From positions 6,185 to 70,184 of IMG/VR virus record IMGVR_UViG_3300006217_000029: a DNA stretch of 64,000 bases. One strand, 5' to 3'. The notes under the pieces were generated by a model. That model made no database searches and had not been told where the DNA came from. It was given only the letters and a program-made list of their open reading frames with translations. The position numbers were made by a program, and so were the translations under genes. Shown here piece by piece: positions 4,650 to 30,022 of this stretch. This DNA is from a virus. Taxonomy: Duplodnaviria; Caudoviricetes. Within the stretch, counting starts at the first letter, position 1. Each line of letters starts with the position of its first letter.

Positions 4650-4943
4650 TTAGTCGATGAGGTTGCTTGGCACATCGCCATTCACGGCAAAATTCATTCC
4701 TTTGGAAGACAGAGCCTCATGGAGATGCCGCGGACTGAATCTCTGCATATCGAAAGCGTAGCCATACATGACATACGCTGTATTCAGGGTTCGCTTGAGC
4801 ATGAGGACTGACATTTCATCGCCAATATATTCTGGCGGGGCGTTGACAATTTCGTCCCATGCGTCCGATTCAAGCGACACAGATACATAACTTTCACCTG
4901 CCTCTGCGGGAGAGACATTGACGCTGAAAATGAATTTGCTCAT
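4650..4943 (-). CDS. Small hypothetical protein, positional analogue of P1 Hxr
   Basis: 97-aa ORF coupled to ddrB by a 4-nt overlap; synteny only. Confidence 0.6.
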   Translation of the reverse strand: MSKFIFSVNVSPAEAGESYVSVSLESDAWDEIVNAPPEYIGDEMSVLMLKRTLNTAYVMYGYAFDMQRFSPRHLHEALSSKGMNFAVNGDVPSNLID

Positions 4944-6775
4944 ATCTGAAGCCTTGGAAGTCCCTTTTCGACATCAAACCATGTCGGAACTGCATCGGAG
5001 CAGACAAAGGAGAAAAAATCGGTCGTGGCATCGCTCGCAGTTTCATAATGAACCGGAAGCTCACGCCGGTCGTTCATTATATGCAGATAGGCAAGGCGTG
5101 TGACTGAAGGAAGGGTGGCTTTGTAAAGCCCTCTCCACCATCCGTCATCGTTGATTTGATACAAAGTCCACTGGCTTTTCTTGCGGACGTTCTGCAAGAC
5201 AGCATATCCGGCAAACCCTTGCCGTGCTTTCAGAAGTTCGGAAAATCCATCCGGGATGGCATTGCGTAACGCCTTTTCCCATGGTCCACGCAATTCAGCG
5301 CGTTCACCCTTCGCCTTTTCCCTGTCAGCATATGCCTTTCTGGCCTCGCGTTCGACCTCTCGCATTTTTTGGGAAAGCTCTGGGCTTTGCCGCGCGCATA
5401 CCCCCAGGAACAACTTGAAATGCTCCGGGTCTTTTTCGATAAAATTTGCGAGATGCGCCGGTGAAGACATGTGCTGCAAGGCCATGGAGAAGACTTCCGA
5501 TGCTTCGCCCTGGTAGTCCTTCCCGACATAAGGGTTGATGAAAGAATCGGGAAAAGCTTTTTCCCCAGGCCCATACGCACCGCCTGTCATTGTTTTCAGC
5601 GACTTTGGTGCGCCTTGCGCCCTGCTCCTGATAAAGGAGAGGCTGGCTGCAAGCGCGGTGCGGTCCCAGCGCTCAACAAGGTGGCCGCACTCATGGAAGA
5701 GCGTTGTTTTGTTGAAGTCAGAATCAAGGCAAATTTGCGAACGTCCCCGCGCAAAGGCCCGTCGAGTGCCTTTTTGGAGGATAAACTCCACGGGGCCGAG
5801 TTTGCCCCCAAGATACTGATACACTTCGGCCATATCGTTAATAAACTGCTCCTTGGGATAGTTTATTTTTTTGAGCTTTCTGGCGACATTGGGGGCAATG
5901 TAAACATTTTCGTTTGCCCATTCCTGCGCCTCTTCTTTTGATATGGACGATATGGATTCGAGTGCTTTTTTTACACTTTCAAAAGTTTCCTTTTCTCGTG
6001 CTTCTATATCCTTTGCAAGGCTTTTCATACGGTTATACAATTCAGCGTATTCAGGATTATCCGCTCTTTCCTGCTCCATCAAGGCCGTTTTCATTTCAGA
6101 AATGCGCCTTATGAGTTCAGAAGCATTTTCTCCATATATCATATCTGATTTAGTAAACCGGTCTATACGTCCCTCAGTAATTTCAGAAATAACGTATCCC
6201 GGAACACGGAACATACCATCTTGACGTAATAAAGAAAAAATTCTTGCGTTTATTCTTTGTGTGACTTCTGCGAATTTTCCTGAATAAATATCCTTGTGCA
6301 GCTCATTCAAATTATTTTTGAGAGCCTTTGCTTCTTCCATCTTGGATATGATGTCAGAAAAATTATTTTGGATGATTGATGCACCCGATTCGATGATGAC
6401 CTTTCTCACTTCATCCGGCGTCGAGGATTCGGCCATTTCCAAGAGTTGCGCGTTTTGGGGCGAAGCGTCTCTGACGGCTGCCAGGGCGGCATCATTCCGG
6501 GCGATTCTTGCCATTGCGGCGAACTCGTAGAGAACATCGGCGGCCGGGCTGGGCGATGACTGAATCCGTTCTATGTATCGTTCCAGGGAGGCAACCAGTT
6601 CGGGGGTCTCGGAAGAAATGATCTCTCCATGGCGCGAGAAAACACTGAAGATGGCAACGATGTCGCCAAAACTCTTCGCATCTCGCACGGCCTGCGTTGC
6701 CGATTCCAGCGTGCTATAAAATGCCACAGTGCTATCCCGCGTTGTTGGCTTGCGCTTCTGCACCTCGGCGTTCAC
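4940..6775 (-). CDS. ddrB: DdrB-like protein with HEXXH zincin motif
   Basis: FHECGHLVE and SEVFSMALQ resemble the P1 DdrB C-terminal region as recalled; position in dar operon. Confidence 0.7.
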   Translation of the reverse strand: MNAEVQKRKPTTRDSTVAFYSTLESATQAVRDAKSFGDIVAIFSVFSRHGEIISSETPELVASLERYIERIQSSPSPAADVLYEFAAMARIARNDAALAAVRDASPQNAQLLEMAESSTPDEVRKVIIESGASIIQNNFSDIISKMEEAKALKNNLNELHKDIYSGKFAEVTQRINARIFSLLRQDGMFRVPGYVISEITEGRIDRFTKSDMIYGENASELIRRISEMKTALMEQERADNPEYAELYNRMKSLAKDIEAREKETFESVKKALESISSISKEEAQEWANENVYIAPNVARKLKKINYPKEQFINDMAEVYQYLGGKLGPVEFILQKGTRRAFARGRSQICLDSDFNKTTLFHECGHLVERWDRTALAASLSFIRSRAQGAPKSLKTMTGGAYGPGEKAFPDSFINPYVGKDYQGEASEVFSMALQHMSSPAHLANFIEKDPEHFKLFLGVCARQSPELSQKMREVEREARKAYADREKAKGERAELRGPWEKALRNAIPDGFSELLKARQGFAGYAVLQNVRKKSQWTLYQINDDGWWRGLYKATLPSVTRLAYLHIMNDRRELPVHYETASDATTDFFSFVCSDAVPTWFDVEKGLPRLQI

Positions 6776-7694
6776 GGATAGGCCTCCACTTCGGGAGACG
6801 GCTCTTGATGTCTTCCTCGCGTAGCCAAACCTCTTGGCCCTTGAGAACGTCCGCGATTTCCTCAGCAGTCAGAAAGCCGGAATACAGTTCATCGAACCAC
6901 TTCCTGAAATGCTTTTCCAGGAACGTACTTTGGGCCTTCATGTCGCCGACCTTTCCCCACGAAAACCCCGAAGCATTGTGAATCATCATGGTACAGTGGG
7001 GAGTGGTCTGAATCTCATCGCAGGACATGGCCACGATGGAGCCGGAGGAATAGGCCGTGATGATGCGCGCGATGGTCTTGGCCTTGCATTCCATGAGGGC
7101 TGCATAGACGGCCTGAGCCGAATCGGTGCGGCCTCCGTGGGAATTGATTTTGAGGGTGACAGTATCCACTTCGCGCGCCTGTTCAATGGCGCGGATGATG
7201 CCCCGGAAGGTTTCGGGAGACTCAAAATCGGTGTCGATGTCTATGATGATGTTCTGCGGAGCGCCGTATTCGAGGCCTTTTGGCAAGGAGCGAACGGCTC
7301 CATTTGCCTGATTTTTTGCGTCAAAAGGACGCACCGGTAAAAAAGAAGATACATCGGCGCTCTCGAACACGCCTTCTTCGCTATGGTGCTCCGCGAGGTA
7401 GGCGATAACCGGGTCTTGAATCATCTGAATATTGCCGTTCACCTCGGCCAGAGCCTTCTTCAGAATCGCAAGGAAGCGGGCCGGAACTTCCTTGAGAAAT
7501 TTTCCGGCAATAAGCTGCTCGAAGAGTGATTGGGAGTCACCCCCAGACACGCCTTTCAGCTTGTCCAGCGCTTCCTTTATCTGTCTTTGCGTGGCAAGCC
7601 GCTGCCGGATGTCTTTGATGCCTGACTTGAGCTTGTCGAGACCTTCCTTGACCGCCCGTTGAAGGGTCAGTTTTTCCTTGATATTCAACATCAT
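6732..7694 (-). CDS. DdrA-like N-terminal domain fused to a ClpP/S14-type serine protease domain
   Basis: INSHGG, AYSSGS (Ser), MMIHNAS (His) ClpP-type motifs; ~105-aa helical N-terminus in the ddrA slot between darA and ddrB. Confidence 0.75.
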   Translation of the reverse strand: MMLNIKEKLTLQRAVKEGLDKLKSGIKDIRQRLATQRQIKEALDKLKGVSGGDSQSLFEQLIAGKFLKEVPARFLAILKKALAEVNGNIQMIQDPVIAYLAEHHSEEGVFESADVSSFLPVRPFDAKNQANGAVRSLPKGLEYGAPQNIIIDIDTDFESPETFRGIIRAIEQAREVDTVTLKINSHGGRTDSAQAVYAALMECKAKTIARIITAYSSGSIVAMSCDEIQTTPHCTMMIHNASGFSWGKVGDMKAQSTFLEKHFRKWFDELYSGFLTAEEIADVLKGQEVWLREEDIKSRLPKWRPIRERRGAEAQANNAG

Positions 7695-9550: not shown

Positions 9551-10630
9551 TCACGCCATGCGTCCGCGTGGAGGGCGGACCAGGACAAGCTCGGAGAGAA
9601 CGCTTTCCGTTGTTCTGGTGGCGTCACAGTGCTTCATCTGGCCGCAGAATGAAGCCACTCGCGGGCGGATGTAGTCCAAATCTATTTTCCCTTCGGCGTA
9701 TTCTCGCGCAATCCTTCTGAAATCAAGCCTTGCCCGGCGTGTGTTGCGCTTTCTGGGCAAAGTATGTGTTGTCCAGTGTCTATATCCAGAAAAATCAATG
9801 CCGTGTGATATAGGAAAGATGGACGTTTTCGGATTTAGATTCAATTCAAGCTCTTCATTCAGAAAATTTTCAATAGATGCAAGAATTGATTTCAAAAATC
9901 GTTTATCTTCGCCAACGATTATAAAATCATCCATATATCTGACATAGAATTTGACCCCCAATTCATCTTTTACAAAATGGTCGAACTTATCCAGATAGAC
10001 ATTTGCAAAGAGTTGCGATGTCAATGCCCCGATGGGGAGCCCTGAATCGGTAAAGCCGTTTTTCAGGACGATTTTTCCGCAGAGATCAAGCACATTCACA
10101 TCGCCCAGTGTCCTTGCAATCTGGCGTAACAGAATGCCGTGCCGGATGTTGGGGAAGTAGCTTTTGATGTCCGCCTTGAGCGCATAGGGATGGAACCAGT
10201 TCGCGCTTGCGGTTGTGATAAAACTGCGGAGTCGTTTGCTGGCCTCGTGCGGCCCTTTGTCTTTCCGGCAGGCAAAGCTGTCCGGGATAAACCGCCGTTC
10301 AAAGAACGGTTCGATGACTTTCACAAGGGAACGATGGACGATGCGGTCTGCGAAAGTGGGCGCCTGGACAAGGCGGAGTTTGGGTTCTCGAATAACGAAC
10401 TCTCGACACGGAGAAGGGAACCACGTCCCGGCAATCAAGGCTCGTTGGATTTCAAGCAGGTTGTCTTCAAGGCGTCCGTAGAATCGGAGTACCTCATCAT
10501 AGTACCGTTTTCCACAACGCGCTCCATGCCATGCGGCGTATAGGTTGCCGAAGTCCACGACCTGCGGCCATAAATTTTTTGCGGGTTTTGGCATAGGCTC
10601 CAAAAAAGGACCGGAACCGCGTTCAGGCAT
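9551..10630 (-). CDS. DGR reverse transcriptase
   Basis: RT motifs PTFADRIVH, GLPIGALTSQ (DGR-type [LIV]GxxxSQ), YVRYMDD; no maturase or endonuclease domain; beside Avd and TR. Confidence 0.95.
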   Translation of the reverse strand: MPERGSGPFLEPMPKPAKNLWPQVVDFGNLYAAWHGARCGKRYYDEVLRFYGRLEDNLLEIQRALIAGTWFPSPCREFVIREPKLRLVQAPTFADRIVHRSLVKVIEPFFERRFIPDSFACRKDKGPHEASKRLRSFITTASANWFHPYALKADIKSYFPNIRHGILLRQIARTLGDVNVLDLCGKIVLKNGFTDSGLPIGALTSQLFANVYLDKFDHFVKDELGVKFYVRYMDDFIIVGEDKRFLKSILASIENFLNEELELNLNPKTSIFPISHGIDFSGYRHWTTHTLPRKRNTRRARLDFRRIAREYAEGKIDLDYIRPRVASFCGQMKHCDATRTTESVLSELVLVRPPRGRMA

Positions 10631-10752
10631 CTTACTTGCCGTTCCGGCCCCATTGTTGTTTCCCCGGCGCTGTTGGCCGAGGGGGACTACAACCCCAAAT
10701 CACTCGCGCTGTCCACGCCCCCGGTAGGGACATGGCCTCTGGCGGGTGCTGA

Positions 10753-10851
10753 TTTGCGAGACGGCCTCCAATGTTGATGTTTGCATTACTCGATGGATTA
10801 TTGAAATTCAGGCAAAAAGGGCCACAGTGCGCCCCATTATTCCAATTGCCG
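10753..10851 (-). repeat. DGR template repeat (TR)
   Basis: 99 bp aligning ungapped to 12410-12508; reads GNWNNGAHCGPFCLNFNNPSSNANINIGGRLA with 9 AAY codons; between avd and RT. Confidence 0.95.
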
Positions 10852-10856
10852 CCCTT

Positions 10857-11234
10857 TTAGGTTGTAGCCCTGCTATCTTGTGTCCCAGGTTTTGGGTCAC
10901 GAACATGTTTGAGCCATCCGCCAAGCATCCTTCCGACTTCGGAAACATGACCAGACCACACTTCATATTTATGGTCGTTGATGTAACCAAGGTTTCTGGA
11001 CATACGAATCAGAACACGAAGGTATTCAAGCTCTATGTCCATATCCTGCAATGTTGTCTTTTTGTAATAGCGTTTGGCGGAAGTGATTGTGAGGTGAATC
11101 AGAGTGGCAAGGGTATTGCGTATATCCTGCGCGAGAACATGCCTTTCTGACTTTGGAAAGAGCATAACGGTCTGATGAGAATACTGATTCAGTTCCTCCA
11201 GTTTCGTCAGGATTTGCAAGCTATCCAATGCCAC
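10857..11234 (-). CDS. avd: DGR accessory variability determinant (Avd, four-helix bundle)
   Basis: FPKSERHVLAQDIR...DIELEYLRVLIRMS...EVGRMLGGWLK; probable GTG start at 11234 (track start 11288). Confidence 0.9.
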   Translation of the reverse strand: MALDSLQILTKLEELNQYSHQTVMLFPKSERHVLAQDIRNTLATLIHLTITSAKRYYKKTTLQDMDIELEYLRVLIRMSRNLGYINDHKYEVWSGHVSEVGRMLGGWLKHVRDPKPGTQDSRATT

Positions 11235-11235
11235 G

Positions 11236-11259
11236 AAAAAGCCCCCTTTGTCAGGGGGC
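11236..11259 (-). terminator. Intrinsic terminator-like hairpin immediately before avd
   Basis: GCCCCCT-gacaa-AGGGGGC followed by TTTTT on minus strand. Confidence 0.65.
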
Positions 11260-11291
11260 AAGGTATCATTGGCCAAACAGACAGACAAGAG

Positions 11292-11639
11292 CTATTCGGG
11301 GCCGGCGCGAATATCAGGGGGCAAGTGCCGTCCCTCCCTCTCCGAAATGTACGATTCCCGGCAGTGGTTGATGTCACCCAGGCAGGCGGCCAGAAAATCC
11401 ACAACGACACGAGGCCACCGCCGCACACCGCTTATTTCCCAGCGCCAGCAATGGGCGCTGATAGTTTCATCGGCCCACCAATAACCCGCGGCGCGGGGGA
11501 GAAGGTATAGCAGGCCAAGAAGGCCCAGAAACAGCCCCAGAGAGGCGTTTCCGAGCTGGTCTGCCGCAATGAGGCATTGCTTCGCATTATGGCGAAATGC
11601 GGCCTTTCTGGGGCCAAATCGCCAGTCCCACGTTTTCAT
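11292..11639 (-). CDS. Small phage protein of the tail-fibre region
   Basis: 115-aa ORF, 4-nt overlap with upstream gene; QLGNA...DETISAHCWRW pattern. Confidence 0.65.
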   Translation of the reverse strand: MKTWDWRFGPRKAAFRHNAKQCLIAADQLGNASLGLFLGLLGLLYLLPRAAGYWWADETISAHCWRWEISGVRRWPRVVVDFLAACLGDINHCRESYISEREGRHLPPDIRAGPE

Positions 11640-12052
11640 GCCCCTGCTCCCGGAAGCGCATAGATGACTTCGATGGCCGCCACCTGTTCAGGAGTGGTAC
11701 AGGCGTCCAGCATATCCTCAAACTTCTGCCTCTGGCCGATGATTGCACCGGACGCGGCAGAAAAGGCTGTAGCTTTGACGATGACGCGATTACACAGGTC
11801 TTGCAGTTCTATGCCACGCGCTTGGGCAAGCGGGGCCAGAAGCGGGCATGGTTTGCTCTGGTCGGAGAGATATGCTTCCGCCTCCGTCTTTTGCTGGTCG
11901 AAGGTGAGGAGTTCGGAACCGGGGTAGCTCTTGGTCAGAACGCCCAGCATCATATCACACTGGTCGTTGATCTCGGCCAGTTTTTGGGCCTTGGCGTGTT
12001 CCACGCCTGACAGCCAGGTTTCAGGATTCACCCCTTGGTTACTTCTGGGCAT
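11636..12052 (-). CDS. Tail fibre assembly/chaperone-like protein (DUF4376-like)
   Basis: KAQKLAEIN...YPGSELLTFDQQKTEAEAY...LAPLAQARGIEL pattern typical of tail fibre chaperones. Confidence 0.7.
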   Translation of the reverse strand: MPRSNQGVNPETWLSGVEHAKAQKLAEINDQCDMMLGVLTKSYPGSELLTFDQQKTEAEAYLSDQSKPCPLLAPLAQARGIELQDLCNRVIVKATAFSAASGAIIGQRQKFEDMLDACTTPEQVAAIEVIYALPGAGA

Positions 12053-12302
12053 ACTTCACCCCCTCCGCGAGATAGATTCTTTTGCAGGATTTGCCGTCCT
12101 GCGTCATTTCCAGGTGGGCAAGCATGAGTGTATCGCCGATGGCACAGGCAGGGATGGGTTCGATTTCCCCGTTGGCCCATGTTGCGAGGTACAGGCCGTC
12201 ATCGCTGTAGTTTTCAGGTACTGCGTACAGCTTCACATGGCCGGAAAGCGGTACGGGCGTAGTGAACTCCTGTCCGCCATAAGAAAATTTGATTTCGGAC
12301 AT
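12039..12302 (-). CDS. Hypothetical protein downstream of tail fibre
   Basis: 87-aa ORF with AAGGAG RBS, overlapping next gene. Confidence 0.6.
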   Translation of the reverse strand: MSEIKFSYGGQEFTTPVPLSGHVKLYAVPENYSDDGLYLATWANGEIEPIPACAIGDTLMLAHLEMTQDGKSCKRIYLAEGVKYAQK

Positions 12303-12329
12303 ACGCTTTCTCCTTCAAAAATATTTTCG

Positions 12330-12369
12330 ACCGCCTTCGGCGGTAAAGCACGGCCGCCTCTCGGCGGCC
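12330..12369 (-). other. Two GC-rich hairpins downstream of VR (DGR target-recognition cruciform candidate)
   Basis: GGCCGCC-GAGA-GGCGGCC (12352-12369) and ACCGCC-GAA-GGCGGT (12330-12344). Confidence 0.7.
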
Positions 12370-12402
12370 TTTTCAGAAAGGCAGTGAACAGGACACAGTA
12401 GC

Positions 12403-14091
12403 CTAAATCTTTGCGAGACGGCCTCCAATGTCGATGTAGGCAAGACTCGATGGAGAAGTGAAATACAGGCAAAAAGGGCCACAGGGCGCCCCATCATTCC
12501 AAGTGCCGGCCTGATAACAAACACCATTAGCAACTGGCCCCCAAAAGCCGTCCGCGTATGTTGCGCTGTTTTCCGCCCCGGTAACAACTTCCGGCAGAAA
12601 AACATCATCGAAGTTGTAACCGTCACCCTTGCCGGAACGCATGGAAACCGGCCAGCCAGTGAGACCGCTGGAGTATGGCGGCATGGCAAATCCCGTGGAA
12701 ATCCACGCGCGTGTGCCGTCATTCTTGAAAATTTCCGTCTTCTTGTTGGAATCCGCCCGAACACCATCAAGCATCTTCCAGACGTTTCCGTAGAGGGCGT
12801 GGAAGCCGCGGTATGGGACATGGTTGACCAGGCTGTCGGTGTTGACGGCATAGCTCGTTTTCCCATCCCATGTCTTGTCCACATTGCCGCGACCCAACCT
12901 GGACTGAGCATCGGTCGTTGCAAGCTCAATGAGCATGAGCAGGGTCAAGGCCGACCACTGATAAACATCCCAGAGCATGAACCCCGACACACCGTTGACG
13001 TTTCTGTTGGCGCAGTAGGTCTTCATCGTATCAAAGTTCACATTGACGAAGGGGAGTTTGCCGGGCCGGGAACCGAGTTTCTTCGGGTTTCCGCCTTCAT
13101 CCGTGGCTTCGTAGCAGCCAAGCAGGTAGTAGGGAATCTGGGCGTTATTGTGCATGAACGCCGGATGAATGCGGAATCCCTCTTTCTGGCCCGGAGAAAT
13201 AAGCTTGCACGGCTTCCCCGCGAACATTCCTTCCGTGGGGGTGAAGTCCTTCATCCAGAACTGGGGAATCTTGCCCATGATTTGATCGTCCACAATCATG
13301 CGCCGGATGCCCCCGAAAACCGGATTATTGTCGAAGTAGGCGGTGTTGGGCGACACCGGATTCCCTTCTTCGTCAATGTTGAACCAGAGGCCGGCGCCGC
13401 CGCCTGTTGCCACACGGCAGATGCCGATAATGGGACTTGTATTGCCGACAAGGATATTCTCGAAGAGGGCGGCGTGGGCGGATTCGCTGGAATCGTGCGC
13501 GGAAACGGCAGCCTTCGCTTTTTTCTCCACAAACTCTGAAATGGAGGCCGTACCGCCATCTTCGGCCCCTCCCTCTTCACCAGGAAGAGAAAAGCCGGTG
13601 ATGTCGTCCATCGTATGATGGTGAGGCTTCGGATCGCGCGCGTCCGAAAGCCGGTCATCATTATCCGCTACGGCTCCGATGTCCGCAGGGGTGAGGGCAT
13701 CAGCGGCGCCTGCTGCATGTGTCTTGGCGTGTGCCACCAGATTGATTTGCCCGTCAGACTCACCGATTTTGTCATTGACGGCATTGGCAGCGGCGGCAGC
13801 AATCATCTGATACATGGCACTGTCGGGATTATCCAGACCATGCGCCAGGGGGCTTTCGTTATGGGCTGCAACAGCCTCGGCAATCTGGGAGGCGGATGCG
13901 CCGCCACCAATGGCCCCCCCGTGAGCGCTGGAATCGGCTTCGTGCTCCGCAAGTCGGGCAAGCGCCCTGGCTACATCGCCGCCAAGCTGTTCCTGGGCGG
14001 ACGCAAGCGCATCTGCCCCCTTATCCAGTTTATCGGCGACATCCTGCATCGTGGGCTGCATGTCGGGGATTTCGTTTTCGGGCATTGTCAT
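12403..14091 (-). CDS. Tail fibre / receptor-binding protein, DGR target with C-terminal C-type-lectin-like domain
   Basis: N-terminal AH..AH fibre repeats; C-terminal domain ending in VR (GTWNDG...IGGRLAKI). Confidence 0.9.
   Translation of the reverse strand: MTMPENEIPDMQPTMQDVADKLDKGADALASAQEQLGGDVARALARLAEHEADSSAHGGAIGGGASASQIAEAVAAHNESPLAHGLDNPDSAMYQMIAAAAANAVNDKIGESDGQINLVAHAKTHAAGAADALTPADIGAVADNDDRLSDARDPKPHHHTMDDITGFSLPGEEGGAEDGGTASISEFVEKKAKAAVSAHDSSESAHAALFENILVGNTSPIIGICRVATGGGAGLWFNIDEEGNPVSPNTAYFDNNPVFGGIRRMIVDDQIMGKIPQFWMKDFTPTEGMFAGKPCKLISPGQKEGFRIHPAFMHNNAQIPYYLLGCYEATDEGGNPKKLGSRPGKLPFVNVNFDTMKTYCANRNVNGVSGFMLWDVYQWSALTLLMLIELATTDAQSRLGRGNVDKTWDGKTSYAVNTDSLVNHVPYRGFHALYGNVWKMLDGVRADSNKKTEIFKNDGTRAWISTGFAMPPYSSGLTGWPVSMRSGKGDGYNFDDVFLPEVVTGAENSATYADGFWGPVANGVCYQAGTWNDGAPCGPFCLYFTSPSSLAYIDIGGRLAKI
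12410..12508 (-). repeat. DGR variable repeat (VR)
   Basis: 12 mismatches to TR, all at TR adenines; last 33 codons before the terminal Lys-Ile-stop. Confidence 0.95.
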
Positions 14092-25430: not shown

Positions 25431-26156
25431 CTACATGCCGCGCCGTGCGCGGAGACGCATGGATTTTTTGCGATGAAGCCGGGCCGCCGCCGTGTTGGCC
25501 TTGCGCCGGGCCTTGCGAAGCCCGGCCTTCTGTGCGGCGGAAAGGCGCACCTTGCCGGAAATGCGCTTGTTGATTTTCACCACCTTGCCGTCGCGGACGA
25601 CCTTCTGCTTGCGATAGGTGGCTTCCAGAATCATGTGACGGCCTTCGGGGTCGTCGGAGGCATTCTCGAAAACGGCGTCTTCACCGAGCGCGAACCCGGC
25701 AATGATTTCGTCGTCATCAGCTTCCAGTTCATCAAGGCGTTCTTTCAGAGCCTTGCCGACGCGAGCGGCCGCATCGGCGCTGGCCTTGCCTTCGCCGTTC
25801 ACGAAGTCGTTGGCATCGGCCTCGGTAGCGCCGAGGCTCAGAAGAGCGTCAGGAACTTCGGCCCAGACGGCGTTGTAGATAGCCTCTTCCTCGTCGCTGA
25901 TTTCAAAATCGCCGTCGAGGTCGGCCATGCCGATGATGTACTCATCCAAGGCGTTGTAGTTGTACTCGCCATCCTCGACCCACGCGAGAACGGCGGACAT
26001 GGCCTGTGTGCGCGTCTGCTGTCGGGCAAAGACCTGTACCGCGTCTGTGCCTGTTTTCGGTTTGTCCGCGGATTCCAGAACGCCGGAAAGAGCCTGCCCG
26101 CGCCGTGTGGCCGGAAAGGTGAAGTCATCGTCAAAGGTGAAGGATTGTTTATTCAT
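25431..26156 (-). CDS. P1 gp21-like structural protein
   Basis: Acidic body; basic tail VRLSAAQKAGLRKARRKANTAAARLHRKKSMRLR. Confidence 0.75.
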   Translation of the reverse strand: MNKQSFTFDDDFTFPATRRGQALSGVLESADKPKTGTDAVQVFARQQTRTQAMSAVLAWVEDGEYNYNALDEYIIGMADLDGDFEISDEEEAIYNAVWAEVPDALLSLGATEADANDFVNGEGKASADAAARVGKALKERLDELEADDDEIIAGFALGEDAVFENASDDPEGRHMILEATYRKQKVVRDGKVVKINKRISGKVRLSAAQKAGLRKARRKANTAAARLHRKKSMRLRARRGM

Positions 26157-28387: not shown

Positions 28388-30022
28388 CTATTCATCGGTT
28401 TTGCCGGAATCGGATGTATCGCCGCCCGCTGCATTGCTGCCGGACACCATCTTGAGCTTCATCAGGTAGTCACGCCCATCGAAGGGCTGAAGATCGCGGT
28501 AAGCCAGGTCCCACATCGTGGAACTGGTGATGAGGTCGCCCAGAACGGCATGACGGAACGTAAGGGCGGGCACGGCATCGCCGCAGACGTAGCCGGTCTG
28601 GCCGTGTTCCGAGCCGCGGGCGAAGGCGAGGCAGGTGTATTCTTCCTGATTGGGATCGCAGTAGAGGTCAAACTGGCCGAAGACGCGCCCCACATAATGG
28701 GGCTGCGGCACGCTGCGATAGCCCGGCGCGGCCTGGAAGAACGGGGCCGGAAGGTAGCGGAAGACATTGACGGCAAAATTGTCGCCCACAAGACCGACAA
28801 GACCGCTGATGCCGTTGCGCTTCATCAGGGCGGAATCGAGTTCCAGAAGCGCCGAGTTCAGGCTTTCGTAATGCTCGCGCAAAGTGAGGTTTTCGTTCGG
28901 GGTTCGATTCCACTCCACCACATCACGCGCGAAGAAGTACATATCCCGCAGTATCTTGCGGTCCTTGTCTGCCGCCAGAAGGTTACGCATCCCCGACATG
29001 GCGAGGTTGTCCGCATCAAGCCCGAACTCGCGGCGCAGTCCCCAGAGGGCTTGCAGGGTAACGCTGCCCGTAATGGCCGATTCGTGCGGAACGAGCACAC
29101 GGGATTCCATCTGGTGGTCGATTTTGGGGATGAGCTTGTAGTCCTTCTCGATGTCCACATCATAGCCGATGTGGACTTCAATGCCCGCCGCCGGGGCGAC
29201 AGTGAAGTCAGCCGTAACCTTGCCGCTCGCGTAGTCAACGGAACCGCTGACATTGATGGTCGCGCCATCAAGGGCGAATACGCCGAGGATGTGGCCGTTG
29301 TTGTCATCATGGGCCACCATGTTGCGGTCGTGGAGGATTTTCACCGAGCCGGGCTTGATGGGCATCAGTTTGCCGCCGTCCGTGGCGCTGTCGAAGACGA
29401 ATTGCTTCCTGCTCGCATCGCCAATGTACGGCGCGGACATCTGATCCATGACGGCGTAACGCCCATTGTAGCGGAAGTCGATGCGGTCTCCGGCCTGAAG
29501 GTCTCCGAAGGTGCTCCCTGCCACGCGATGGACGCGGAACATCTCCGAGCGGTTGAACTGGCCGGGAATCAGGGTCGTCATCTGGGCGGTGACGGACTGC
29601 AAGAGAACCGGCAGAATGAGGGACACCATGCGGTCTCGCATCATGATGCCCTCGGTCGTGCTCATGTCGGCGGATTCAAAGACGCCGGGCAGGCCGTTGC
29701 CCGCCTTGCCGACAATCATGGCGTTTTCAATGGCCTGATGGGCGCTCGCCAGAAGCTCGTCGCCGGGGAGGCGTCCATACTGTTGACAGAACGCCTGAAG
29801 CGCCCGGCTGTGCGCGCCGAGAATCATGGGCGCGCTTTCGCCGGTGCTTTCATACACCGAATTGGACACCGCCCCTTTCAGGCGTTCGGCCCTGGCCTTG
29901 CTGTCCGAGATGAACTTGCCGCTGTCGTCAAGGATGGGATCAAGCAGGGCGGCGCGCATCTGGTGCGCGCGCGTTACGATGTTGGTAACCTGCTGCTTGT
30001 ACCCGTCAAGATTTTTGCTCAT
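28388..30022 (-). CDS. Major capsid protein (P1 gp23-like)
   Basis: 544 aa; VFESADMSTTEGIMMRDRMVSLILPVLL, FDIDIEK-type and ALWGLRREFG motifs. Confidence 0.85.
   Translation of the reverse strand: MSKNLDGYKQQVTNIVTRAHQMRAALLDPILDDSGKFISDSKARAERLKGAVSNSVYESTGESAPMILGAHSRALQAFCQQYGRLPGDELLASAHQAIENAMIVGKAGNGLPGVFESADMSTTEGIMMRDRMVSLILPVLLQSVTAQMTTLIPGQFNRSEMFRVHRVAGSTFGDLQAGDRIDFRYNGRYAVMDQMSAPYIGDASRKQFVFDSATDGGKLMPIKPGSVKILHDRNMVAHDDNNGHILGVFALDGATINVSGSVDYASGKVTADFTVAPAAGIEVHIGYDVDIEKDYKLIPKIDHQMESRVLVPHESAITGSVTLQALWGLRREFGLDADNLAMSGMRNLLAADKDRKILRDMYFFARDVVEWNRTPNENLTLREHYESLNSALLELDSALMKRNGISGLVGLVGDNFAVNVFRYLPAPFFQAAPGYRSVPQPHYVGRVFGQFDLYCDPNQEEYTCLAFARGSEHGQTGYVCGDAVPALTFRHAVLGDLITSSTMWDLAYRDLQPFDGRDYLMKLKMVSGSNAAGGDTSDSGKTDE

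Follow-up and report, generated by a model that had tools for sequence, protein, structure and literature searches.

A gene in the antirestriction operon of a distant P1-like phage joins a DdrA-like domain to a ClpP-fold protease through a motif shared with the capsid protein

The virus record IMGVR_UViG_3300006217_000029 in IMG/VR, 70,184 bp long with direct terminal repeats, raises the question of what a ClpP-type protease may be doing among the antirestriction (dar) genes of a phage. The window analyzed here is a stretch of 64,000 nucleotides of that record (bases 6185-70184), and the other 6.2 kb are referred to as L005. On its minus strand the window carries a gene with an ATG start encoding 320 amino acids (aa), the N-terminal part of which resembles DdrA of phage P1, while the C-terminal part has the fold of the protease ClpP. 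We consider it somewhat probable (about 0.58) that the product is a packaged, two-part Dar cargo, which would be cut by the prohead protease Pro and the ClpP-like part of which would be co-ejected with the phage DNA to act on host proteins.

The P1 order is hdf-darA-ddrA-ddrB, with a ddrA of 121 codons, and the minus-strand order in the window is a diversity-generating retroelement (DGR), Hdf-like gene, DarA-like gene, fusion gene, DdrB-like gene, a 97-aa open reading frame (ORF) and DarB-like gene; the fusion gene therefore occupies the ddrA slot. The sequence-only reading had placed it between darA and ddrB, and Pfam, PHROG and BLASTP matches bear this out, with a DarA-like gene upstream (35% identity of the product to P1 DarA) and a DdrB-like gene downstream. 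That reading had also pointed to an HEXXH motif in the DdrB-like neighbor, and HECGH is indeed present and is aligned by BLASTP to HELGH in the metallopeptidase domain of P1 DdrB. The ATG of the fusion gene overlaps the stop codon of the DarA-like gene as ATGA, and its translation is coupled to that of the dar operon. The source is a distant P1-like phage; a megablast search with 8 kb of the window against phage genomes gave no match.

When residues 1-140 were searched alone, the best PHROG was phrog_1855 (DdrA-like) with an E-value of 4.3e-4, residues 3-103 matching profile positions 3-110 of 114. The same profile was matched by 22 of the 27 members of the protein family (best 2.7e-8), which were aligned down to 38% identity. 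We then used an iterated hidden Markov model (HMM), rebuilt from standalone relatives that had been found with the N-domain of the window. In targeted comparison it aligned end to end with P1 DdrA, over residues 1-116 (23.6 bits, E 2.6e-9), and with the homologues of P1 DdrA in enterobacteria, the scores ranging over 23.6-28 bits (E 1e-10 to 3e-9). The AlphaFold2 model has helices in this domain at residues 5-24, 29-47, 57-62, 71-84 and 89-104, and a look-up in the ESM Atlas returned generic helical matches only. By profile comparison the N-terminal 111 residues are a DdrA-family module, in keeping with the earlier impression of a helical N-terminus of about 105 residues resembling DdrA. P1 DdrA is small and lacks a protease domain, as that reading had said, and it is in size that the window protein departs from that standalone form of about 120 aa.

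The C-terminal domain is matched by Pfam CLP_protease (PF00574) over residues 168-263 with 42.2 bits against a cut-off of 20.2 (1e-10). Its best PHROG is phrog_1827 ('ATP-dependent protease'; 5e-42, residues 151-318), a non-structural phage ClpP-like family that is seen beside phoH in an Ounavirinae phage. Both nearest PHROGs, 1827 and 5410, are non-structural families of that name, and the head maturation protease families rank below phrog_1827 (phrog_1684 at 1e-27 and phrog_94 at 2e-23). The NCBIfam model for ClpP-related head maturation proteases, NF045542, gave 80.6 bits (1e-22), under its cut-off of 120 bits, and the protein scores far under the NCBIfam cut-offs for ClpP. By these scores and by its gene context it does not qualify as a bona fide ClpP or as a ClpP-related head maturation protease. 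An AlphaFold2 model of the fusion, built with 27 homologues, has a mean predicted local distance difference test score (pLDDT) of 83.9 and an alpha/beta domain from about residue 134. The top Foldseek matches of this model in the PDB are all ClpP chains (E 2.6e-8, template modelling scores of 0.62-0.73 normalised to ClpP). A structure search for each domain, which the sequence-only reading had proposed, was productive for the C-domain and uninformative for the N-domain on its own.

The Ser and His that the sequence-only reading had picked out stand in AYSSGS (aa 214-219) and MMIHN (aa 236-240), and both land on the catalytic motifs of ClpP. The description as a DdrA-like N-terminus followed by a ClpP-type domain is correct. 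None of the 27 aligned members departs from Ser216, Gly218, His239 or an INSxGG motif. Residue 288 is Asp or Glu in every one of the 27, and Asp in most homologues; it is a candidate third triad residue by analogy of its motif with RD171RFL of ClpP.

What may tie the two domains to the head is the segment between them. The DdrA-like domain ends in EEGVFE-SADVSS, with E111 invariant among the 27 sequences and S112 nearly so, and leads into a linker that differs in length and sequence across the family and is largely disordered in the model (pLDDT below 50 at aa 107-130). Its heptapeptide GVFESAD is found again in the major capsid protein, in the context LPGVFE-SADMST, at most 3 residues away from where the E120/S121 site of P1 gp23 falls in the alignment. 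Cleavage of P1 gp23 at that site was determined by N-terminal sequencing (PMC9024508). GVFESAD is the sole 7-mer that the fusion has in common with the 599 six-frame ORFs (82,177 aa) of the genome, and in a genome search V[FL]ESAD was confined to four proteins: the fusion, the Pro homologue, the capsid protein and a late protein of 241 aa. The capsid and fusion versions of the motif co-vary in four related phages: GVFESAD in the capsid protein and GVFESAE in the fusion of G004 (a Bilophila assembly), GVYESAD and GVYENAG in G001, GIFESAE and GVLESAD in G002, and LILEAAN and SIMESAL in G003. In the DarA-like protein, LLLE-SPS stands at about residue 68, close to the point at which the N-terminus of P1 DarA is removed (PMC12810830).

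The conservation of a capsid maturation site in this protein makes sense only if the prohead protease is met, which argues that the fusion is packaged; the idea of a packaged protease is better founded now that the junction is seen to carry the maturation motif of the capsid protein. Judging from the motif, Pro probably cuts the fusion after E111 into a DdrA-like piece of 111 aa and a ClpP-like piece of about 209 aa. Pro rather than the ClpP domain is the likely cutter, because P1 has the same E/S type of site without any ClpP. The genome does encode a Pro homologue, directly after the portal gene as in P1, and the fusion is on this account an additional protease, encoded in the dar operon and not beside the portal or capsid genes. 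Of the refuting conditions named in the sequence-only reading, the three that computation can address spoke for that reading, which is supported at the level of architecture.

The Pro homologue itself holds three hydrophobic-E-S-[AV] motifs (YVLESAD, GILESVA and AIFESAS), which suggests self-processing; prohead proteases commonly carry their own cleavage sites. The PHROG label of its family, 'tail fiber protein' (phrog_1801), looks like a mis-annotation, since P1 Pro falls in the same family. The 241-aa late protein (25431-26156, minus strand), a phrog_1053 member of unknown function, shows LSGVLE-SADKP around residue 27 (at about 26070-26090), and is by this motif probably another prohead protease substrate with a short propeptide.

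To see in what company DdrA-like modules occur, a profile of the N-domain only was run against 1.84 billion representative proteins, and 217 of them (P0075-P0221 among them) were matched at E <= 0.001. Among the best 150 of these 217, 86 are standalone (<=160 aa), 7 carry a ClpP domain, and 46 are longer than 260 aa, most of these without a ClpP domain. The extra sequence of the long proteins is either appended or inserted in the central loop of the module, and the cargo domains include InPase, ddrB-ParB, PBECR2/3 nucleases, RelA_SpoT, an SNF2 helicase and eCIS_core. Several of these domains were defined in a survey of polyvalent proteins that phages deliver (PMC5512222). In 69 of 134 cases the DdrA-like module is followed by a hydrophobic-E-[SA]-A motif, and many of the standalone or loop-insertion forms end in ...ELEAA, P1 DdrA itself ending in ...IKEAA. 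The DdrA-like fusion proteins reach 5165 aa, and most cargo segments have no Pfam family. From these domain arrangements, ClpP seems to be one of the interchangeable cargoes that are joined to capsid-internal Dar modules by a putatively cleavable junction, and DdrA may be a general capsid-loading adaptor.

The following course of events is proposed. The DdrA-like module would load the protein into the procapsid, as its homology to P1 DdrA, a virion protein (PMC9024508), suggests; the packaging of Dar proteins requires DarA and Hdf, and they enter the host together with the DNA (PMC12810830). A DarA- and Hdf-dependent incorporation of DdrA into virions, and its need for antirestriction, are known for P1 only. 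In the head, Pro would cut after E111 and free a ClpP-fold serine protease of about 209 aa with Ser216, His239 and the acidic residue 288. This protease would then leave the head along with the DNA and the other Dar proteins, and would act on host proteins early in infection, defence proteins being the obvious candidates. Action in the host is favoured because the sister DdrA fusions carry enzymes of cytoplasmic type, because Pro is present for all maturation cuts, and because the nearest PHROG is a non-structural phage ClpP-like family. A more specific form of this proposal, that the ejected fragment reassembles in the host and, perhaps coupled to the host unfoldase ClpX or ClpA, breaks down defence proteins such as type I restriction enzymes, seems doubtful. 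Cells are described as alleviating restriction by ClpXP-dependent action on their own HsdR (PMC11109961). If the specific form were true, the phage would supply the protease arm of ClpXP-dependent restriction alleviation.

Other explanations share part of this evidence. The protein could be packaged but active only in the procapsid, as an accessory maturation or clean-up protease that trims the DarA N-terminus, DdrB or DarB, or degrades scaffold-like fragments, rather than as a host effector. The junction motif implies packaging in this case too, the domain also matches the head maturation families phrog_1684, phrog_94 and NF045542, and processing of DarA and DdrB is documented in P1 (PMC12810830, PMC5512222). 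We nevertheless regard this as unlikely, although it is the rival that we take most seriously: Pro is kept, and Pro-type motifs account for the capsid protein, the DarA-like and DdrB-like proteins and Pro itself, P1 does all such processing without ClpP, the NF045542 score stays under its cut-off, and the cytoplasmic type of the enzymes on the sister fusions points elsewhere. That the gene encodes an ordinary head maturation protease which happens to sit in the dar operon was an alternative allowed by the sequence-only reading, and a ClpP-related fold is found in many prohead proteases. The Pro homologue adjoining the portal gene rules this candidate out in practice; together with the distance of the fusion gene from the portal and capsid genes, the NF045542 result and the P1 capsid site of the same E/S type processed without ClpP, it makes that role scarcely credible.

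It is also improbable that the protein is a late cytoplasmic protease that is not packaged, with the DdrA-like domain as a substrate adaptor or regulator and perhaps with a host AAA+ unfoldase as a partner in assembly. The non-structural 'ATP-dependent protease' character of PHROGs 1827 and 5410 would fit this role, and the packaging of the fusion is something we infer; yet a capsid maturation heptapeptide at the junction, co-varying with the capsid protein in relatives, would be hard to explain, the N-domain is homologous to a known virion protein, and translational coupling ties the gene to the dar operon. Still less probable is a ClpP domain that has no catalytic activity or has a structural role alone, as a decoy or as a bulky protein inside the head. 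The third triad residue is not firmly assigned, and the first beta-strand region and the N-terminal loops are unlike cellular ClpP, but Ser216, His239, Gly218 and INSxGG do not vary in any of the 27 members, down to 38% identity, which speaks for selection on catalysis.

Several results weigh against a packaged, Pro-cut and co-ejected protease. On the side of the N-domain, BLASTP of the fusion against P1 DdrA found no pairwise similarity, hhalign gave a weak match of the N-domain alignment to a DdrA alignment of little depth (probability 24.5%, E 8e-4), and Foldseek with an N-domain-only model (pLDDT 69.9) gave no match in BFVD below E 0.28. The capsid motif lies 3 residues off the P1 site in the pairwise alignment. 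In HMMER alignments to PDB sequences the nucleophile column was occupied by Ser216 in one and by Ser217 in two; we favour Ser216, an invariant residue with x-Gly after it like the ClpP nucleophile, while Ser217 is replaced by Ala in at least 4 homologues. The active sites of ClpP normally need the tetradecameric barrel, and usually an AAA+ partner for folded substrates, and no ATPase gene is adjacent to the fusion gene. A second motif, F-E-S-P at aa 157-160 (7215-7226, minus strand), with an invariant Pro160, stands where the ClpP core begins and is similar to LLESP in the DarA-like protein; a cut there would shorten the protease, but the site may be buried. Finally, the source phage is uncultured.

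The fusion is not peculiar to this record. About 37 full-length homologues with 44-88% identity are found in public data, where the source names read only 'ATP-dependent protease ClpP'. The order hdf-darA-fusion-ddrB-(orf97)-darB-ulx-portal is kept in related viral contigs (fusion 44-58% identical), usually with a DGR upstream, and a search for the same fusion in other dar operons, as proposed in the sequence-only reading, has thereby found it. Avd and reverse transcriptase genes stand upstream of the dar genes in two such contigs (L008 and L009). The fusion also occurs in genome assemblies of Bilophila (87% identity), Desulfovibrio desulfuricans (58%) and a Syntrophorhabdaceae metagenome-assembled genome (46%), in agreement with a Bilophila or Desulfovibrio host; the phage of the window comes from gut sulfate-reducing bacteria. 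In tblastn searches against cultured phages and plasmids the ClpP domain alone was matched, and never the fusion.

Variants of the architecture were met among the relatives. Those at L011:8056-9813 and L015:8398-9858 have an extra segment of 150-270 aa in the central loop of the DdrA-like domain and the ClpP domain after the usual IMESAL junction, and are three-part proteins. The insert contains LHYFKGGSDWYITE...AFGYAILNGD and has no Pfam match, and a suspected likeness to DUF2958 was dropped for that reason. In P0038, a metagenomic protein of 403 aa, the same ClpP domain is carried on an Hdf/DarA_N-like N-terminal module (phrog_1620, 1e-19), with GIFESA between the module and the ClpP domain. 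By these matches P0038 is an independent link of this ClpP domain to capsid-internal Dar modules.

The features of the locus are collected in Table 1. Upstream of the dar operon, and directly adjoining it, lies the DGR (region 9551-14091, minus strand). With its listed start, the GTG at 6775, the DdrB-like gene shares 44 nt with the fusion gene; from the local sequence, the true start may be the GTG at 6727, which is just past the fusion stop codon and has GGGA before it. A start at 6727 would give MAFYSTLE-SATQ, and hence a Pro-type site eight residues away from the DdrB-like protein's N-terminus. The 97-aa ORF between the ddrB-like and darB-like genes has no match in Pfam or PHROG and is unlike P1 Hxr, and it is kept at the same position in a related phage (L006/L007) with 39% identity. 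In L005 the end of darB is followed by homologues of P1 Ulx, portal and Pro.

Table 1 Features of the dar locus and of the capsid and prohead protease genes (positions in the window unless L005 is given)
Feature	Position	Strand	Basis
DdrA-ClpP fusion gene (P0001)	6732..7694	-	ORF and homologue family
DdrA-like helical N-domain, aa 1-111	7362..7694	-	phrog_1855, iterated HMM, model
Junction motif GVFE/SAD, aa 108-114, predicted Pro site E111/S112	7353..7373	-	
Variable linker, aa 112-146, largely disordered	7257..7361	-	Model and alignment
ClpP-fold serine protease domain, aa 147-320	6735..7256	-	Pfam, PHROG, Foldseek
Ser216 codon, probable nucleophile	7047..7049	-	Invariant; Gly at +2 as in ClpP S-M/A-G motif
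His239 codon, catalytic His	6978..6980	-	Invariant; aligns with His of ClpP MIHQP motif
Glu288 codon, candidate third triad residue	6831..6833	-	GQ(D/E)xWL motif
DarA-like gene, 382 aa	7691..8839	-	Pfam DarA_N 4e-30, phrog_1926 6e-57
Hdf-like gene, 202 aa	8836..9444	-	phrog_1620 8e-37, DarA_N 4.5e-13
DdrB-like zincin metallopeptidase gene	4940..6775	-	BLASTP 1e-11 to C-terminal metallopeptidase region of P1 DdrB
97-aa ORF between ddrB-like and darB-like genes	4650-4943	-	No family match
DarB-like methyltransferase/helicase gene, leaves window into L005	2..4681	-	phrog_1685, phrog_11801, phrog_10089
Reverse transcriptase of retroelement	9551-10630	-	
Avd-like gene of retroelement	10857-11288	-	
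Major capsid protein, P1 gp23 homologue	28388-30022	-	gp23 homology 2e-62
GVFE/SAD in major capsid protein, aa 113-119	29666..29686	-	Context LPGVFE-SADMST
P1 Pro homologue, 358 aa	L005:916-1992 (outside window)	-	33% identity over 83%

The fusion can be set beside several known systems, none of which it matches throughout. P1 DdrA (phrog_1855) has the same slot between darA and ddrB and a helical domain of about 110 residues, but it stops two residues past a Glu, whereas the fusion runs on into the linker and a 174-residue ClpP-fold domain. With bacterial ClpP (MEROPS S14; Staphylococcus aureus and Thermus thermophilus) the fusion shares the fold and the INSPGG-like, Ser-x-Gly and MIH motifs, at an identity of only 16-22%, and it has the linker and DdrA module where ClpP has its N-terminal axial-loop region. 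The ClpP-related phage head maturation proteases (NF045542; phrog_1684, 94 and 133) belong to the same protease superfamily and are presumably active in proheads without an ATPase; the fusion, unlike these, lies outside the portal-protease-capsid position, is accompanied by a separate Pro and scores under the family cut-off.

A functional parallel is offered by the internal proteins and Alt of phage T4, in which an N-terminal capsid targeting sequence is removed by gp21 after a Glu and the cargo is ejected into the host. Among P1 proteins, DarB has a capsid targeting sequence (PMC9024508). By analogy the fusion resembles both in having an N-terminal targeting element and a proposed prohead protease cut, but the element would here be a folded domain of about 110 aa from a Dar component, unlike the T4 and DarB signals, and the cargo a protease. 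The polyvalent proteins of phages and conjugative elements are likewise multi-domain proteins, delivered with DNA and often with embedded peptidases (Iyer et al. 2017, PMC5512222). The fusion is like them in having two unrelated domains, in being encoded in the late dar operon and in its predicted delivery, and its sister DdrA-like fusions carry the InPase, PBECR and ddrB-ParB domains of that survey. The survey lists four peptidase superfamilies (zincin MPTase, assemblin-like, DD and LonC) and mentions neither ClpP nor DdrA (PMC5512222). Literature searches yielded no account of a ClpP-type Dar component, and nothing relevant on a ClpP that is encoded by phages or packaged and acts in antirestriction.

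What DdrA does in the P1 Dar system is not well defined. The present locus and the wider family suggest that DdrA is a portable head-loading module that ends in a prohead protease site and has different enzymes attached to it; if that is true, it would serve as a modular adaptor for capsid loading, its end cleavable by a protease and the injected enzymes interchangeable. ClpP-type cargo would represent a peptidase class not listed among phage-delivered polyvalent proteins, and the fusion is a candidate for an injected protease that disables host defences. From the shared cleavage motif follows a concrete and checkable prediction, namely cleavage at E111/S112 and presence of the protein in virions. 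The modular design could also serve to load foreign proteins into the capsids of P1-like phages.

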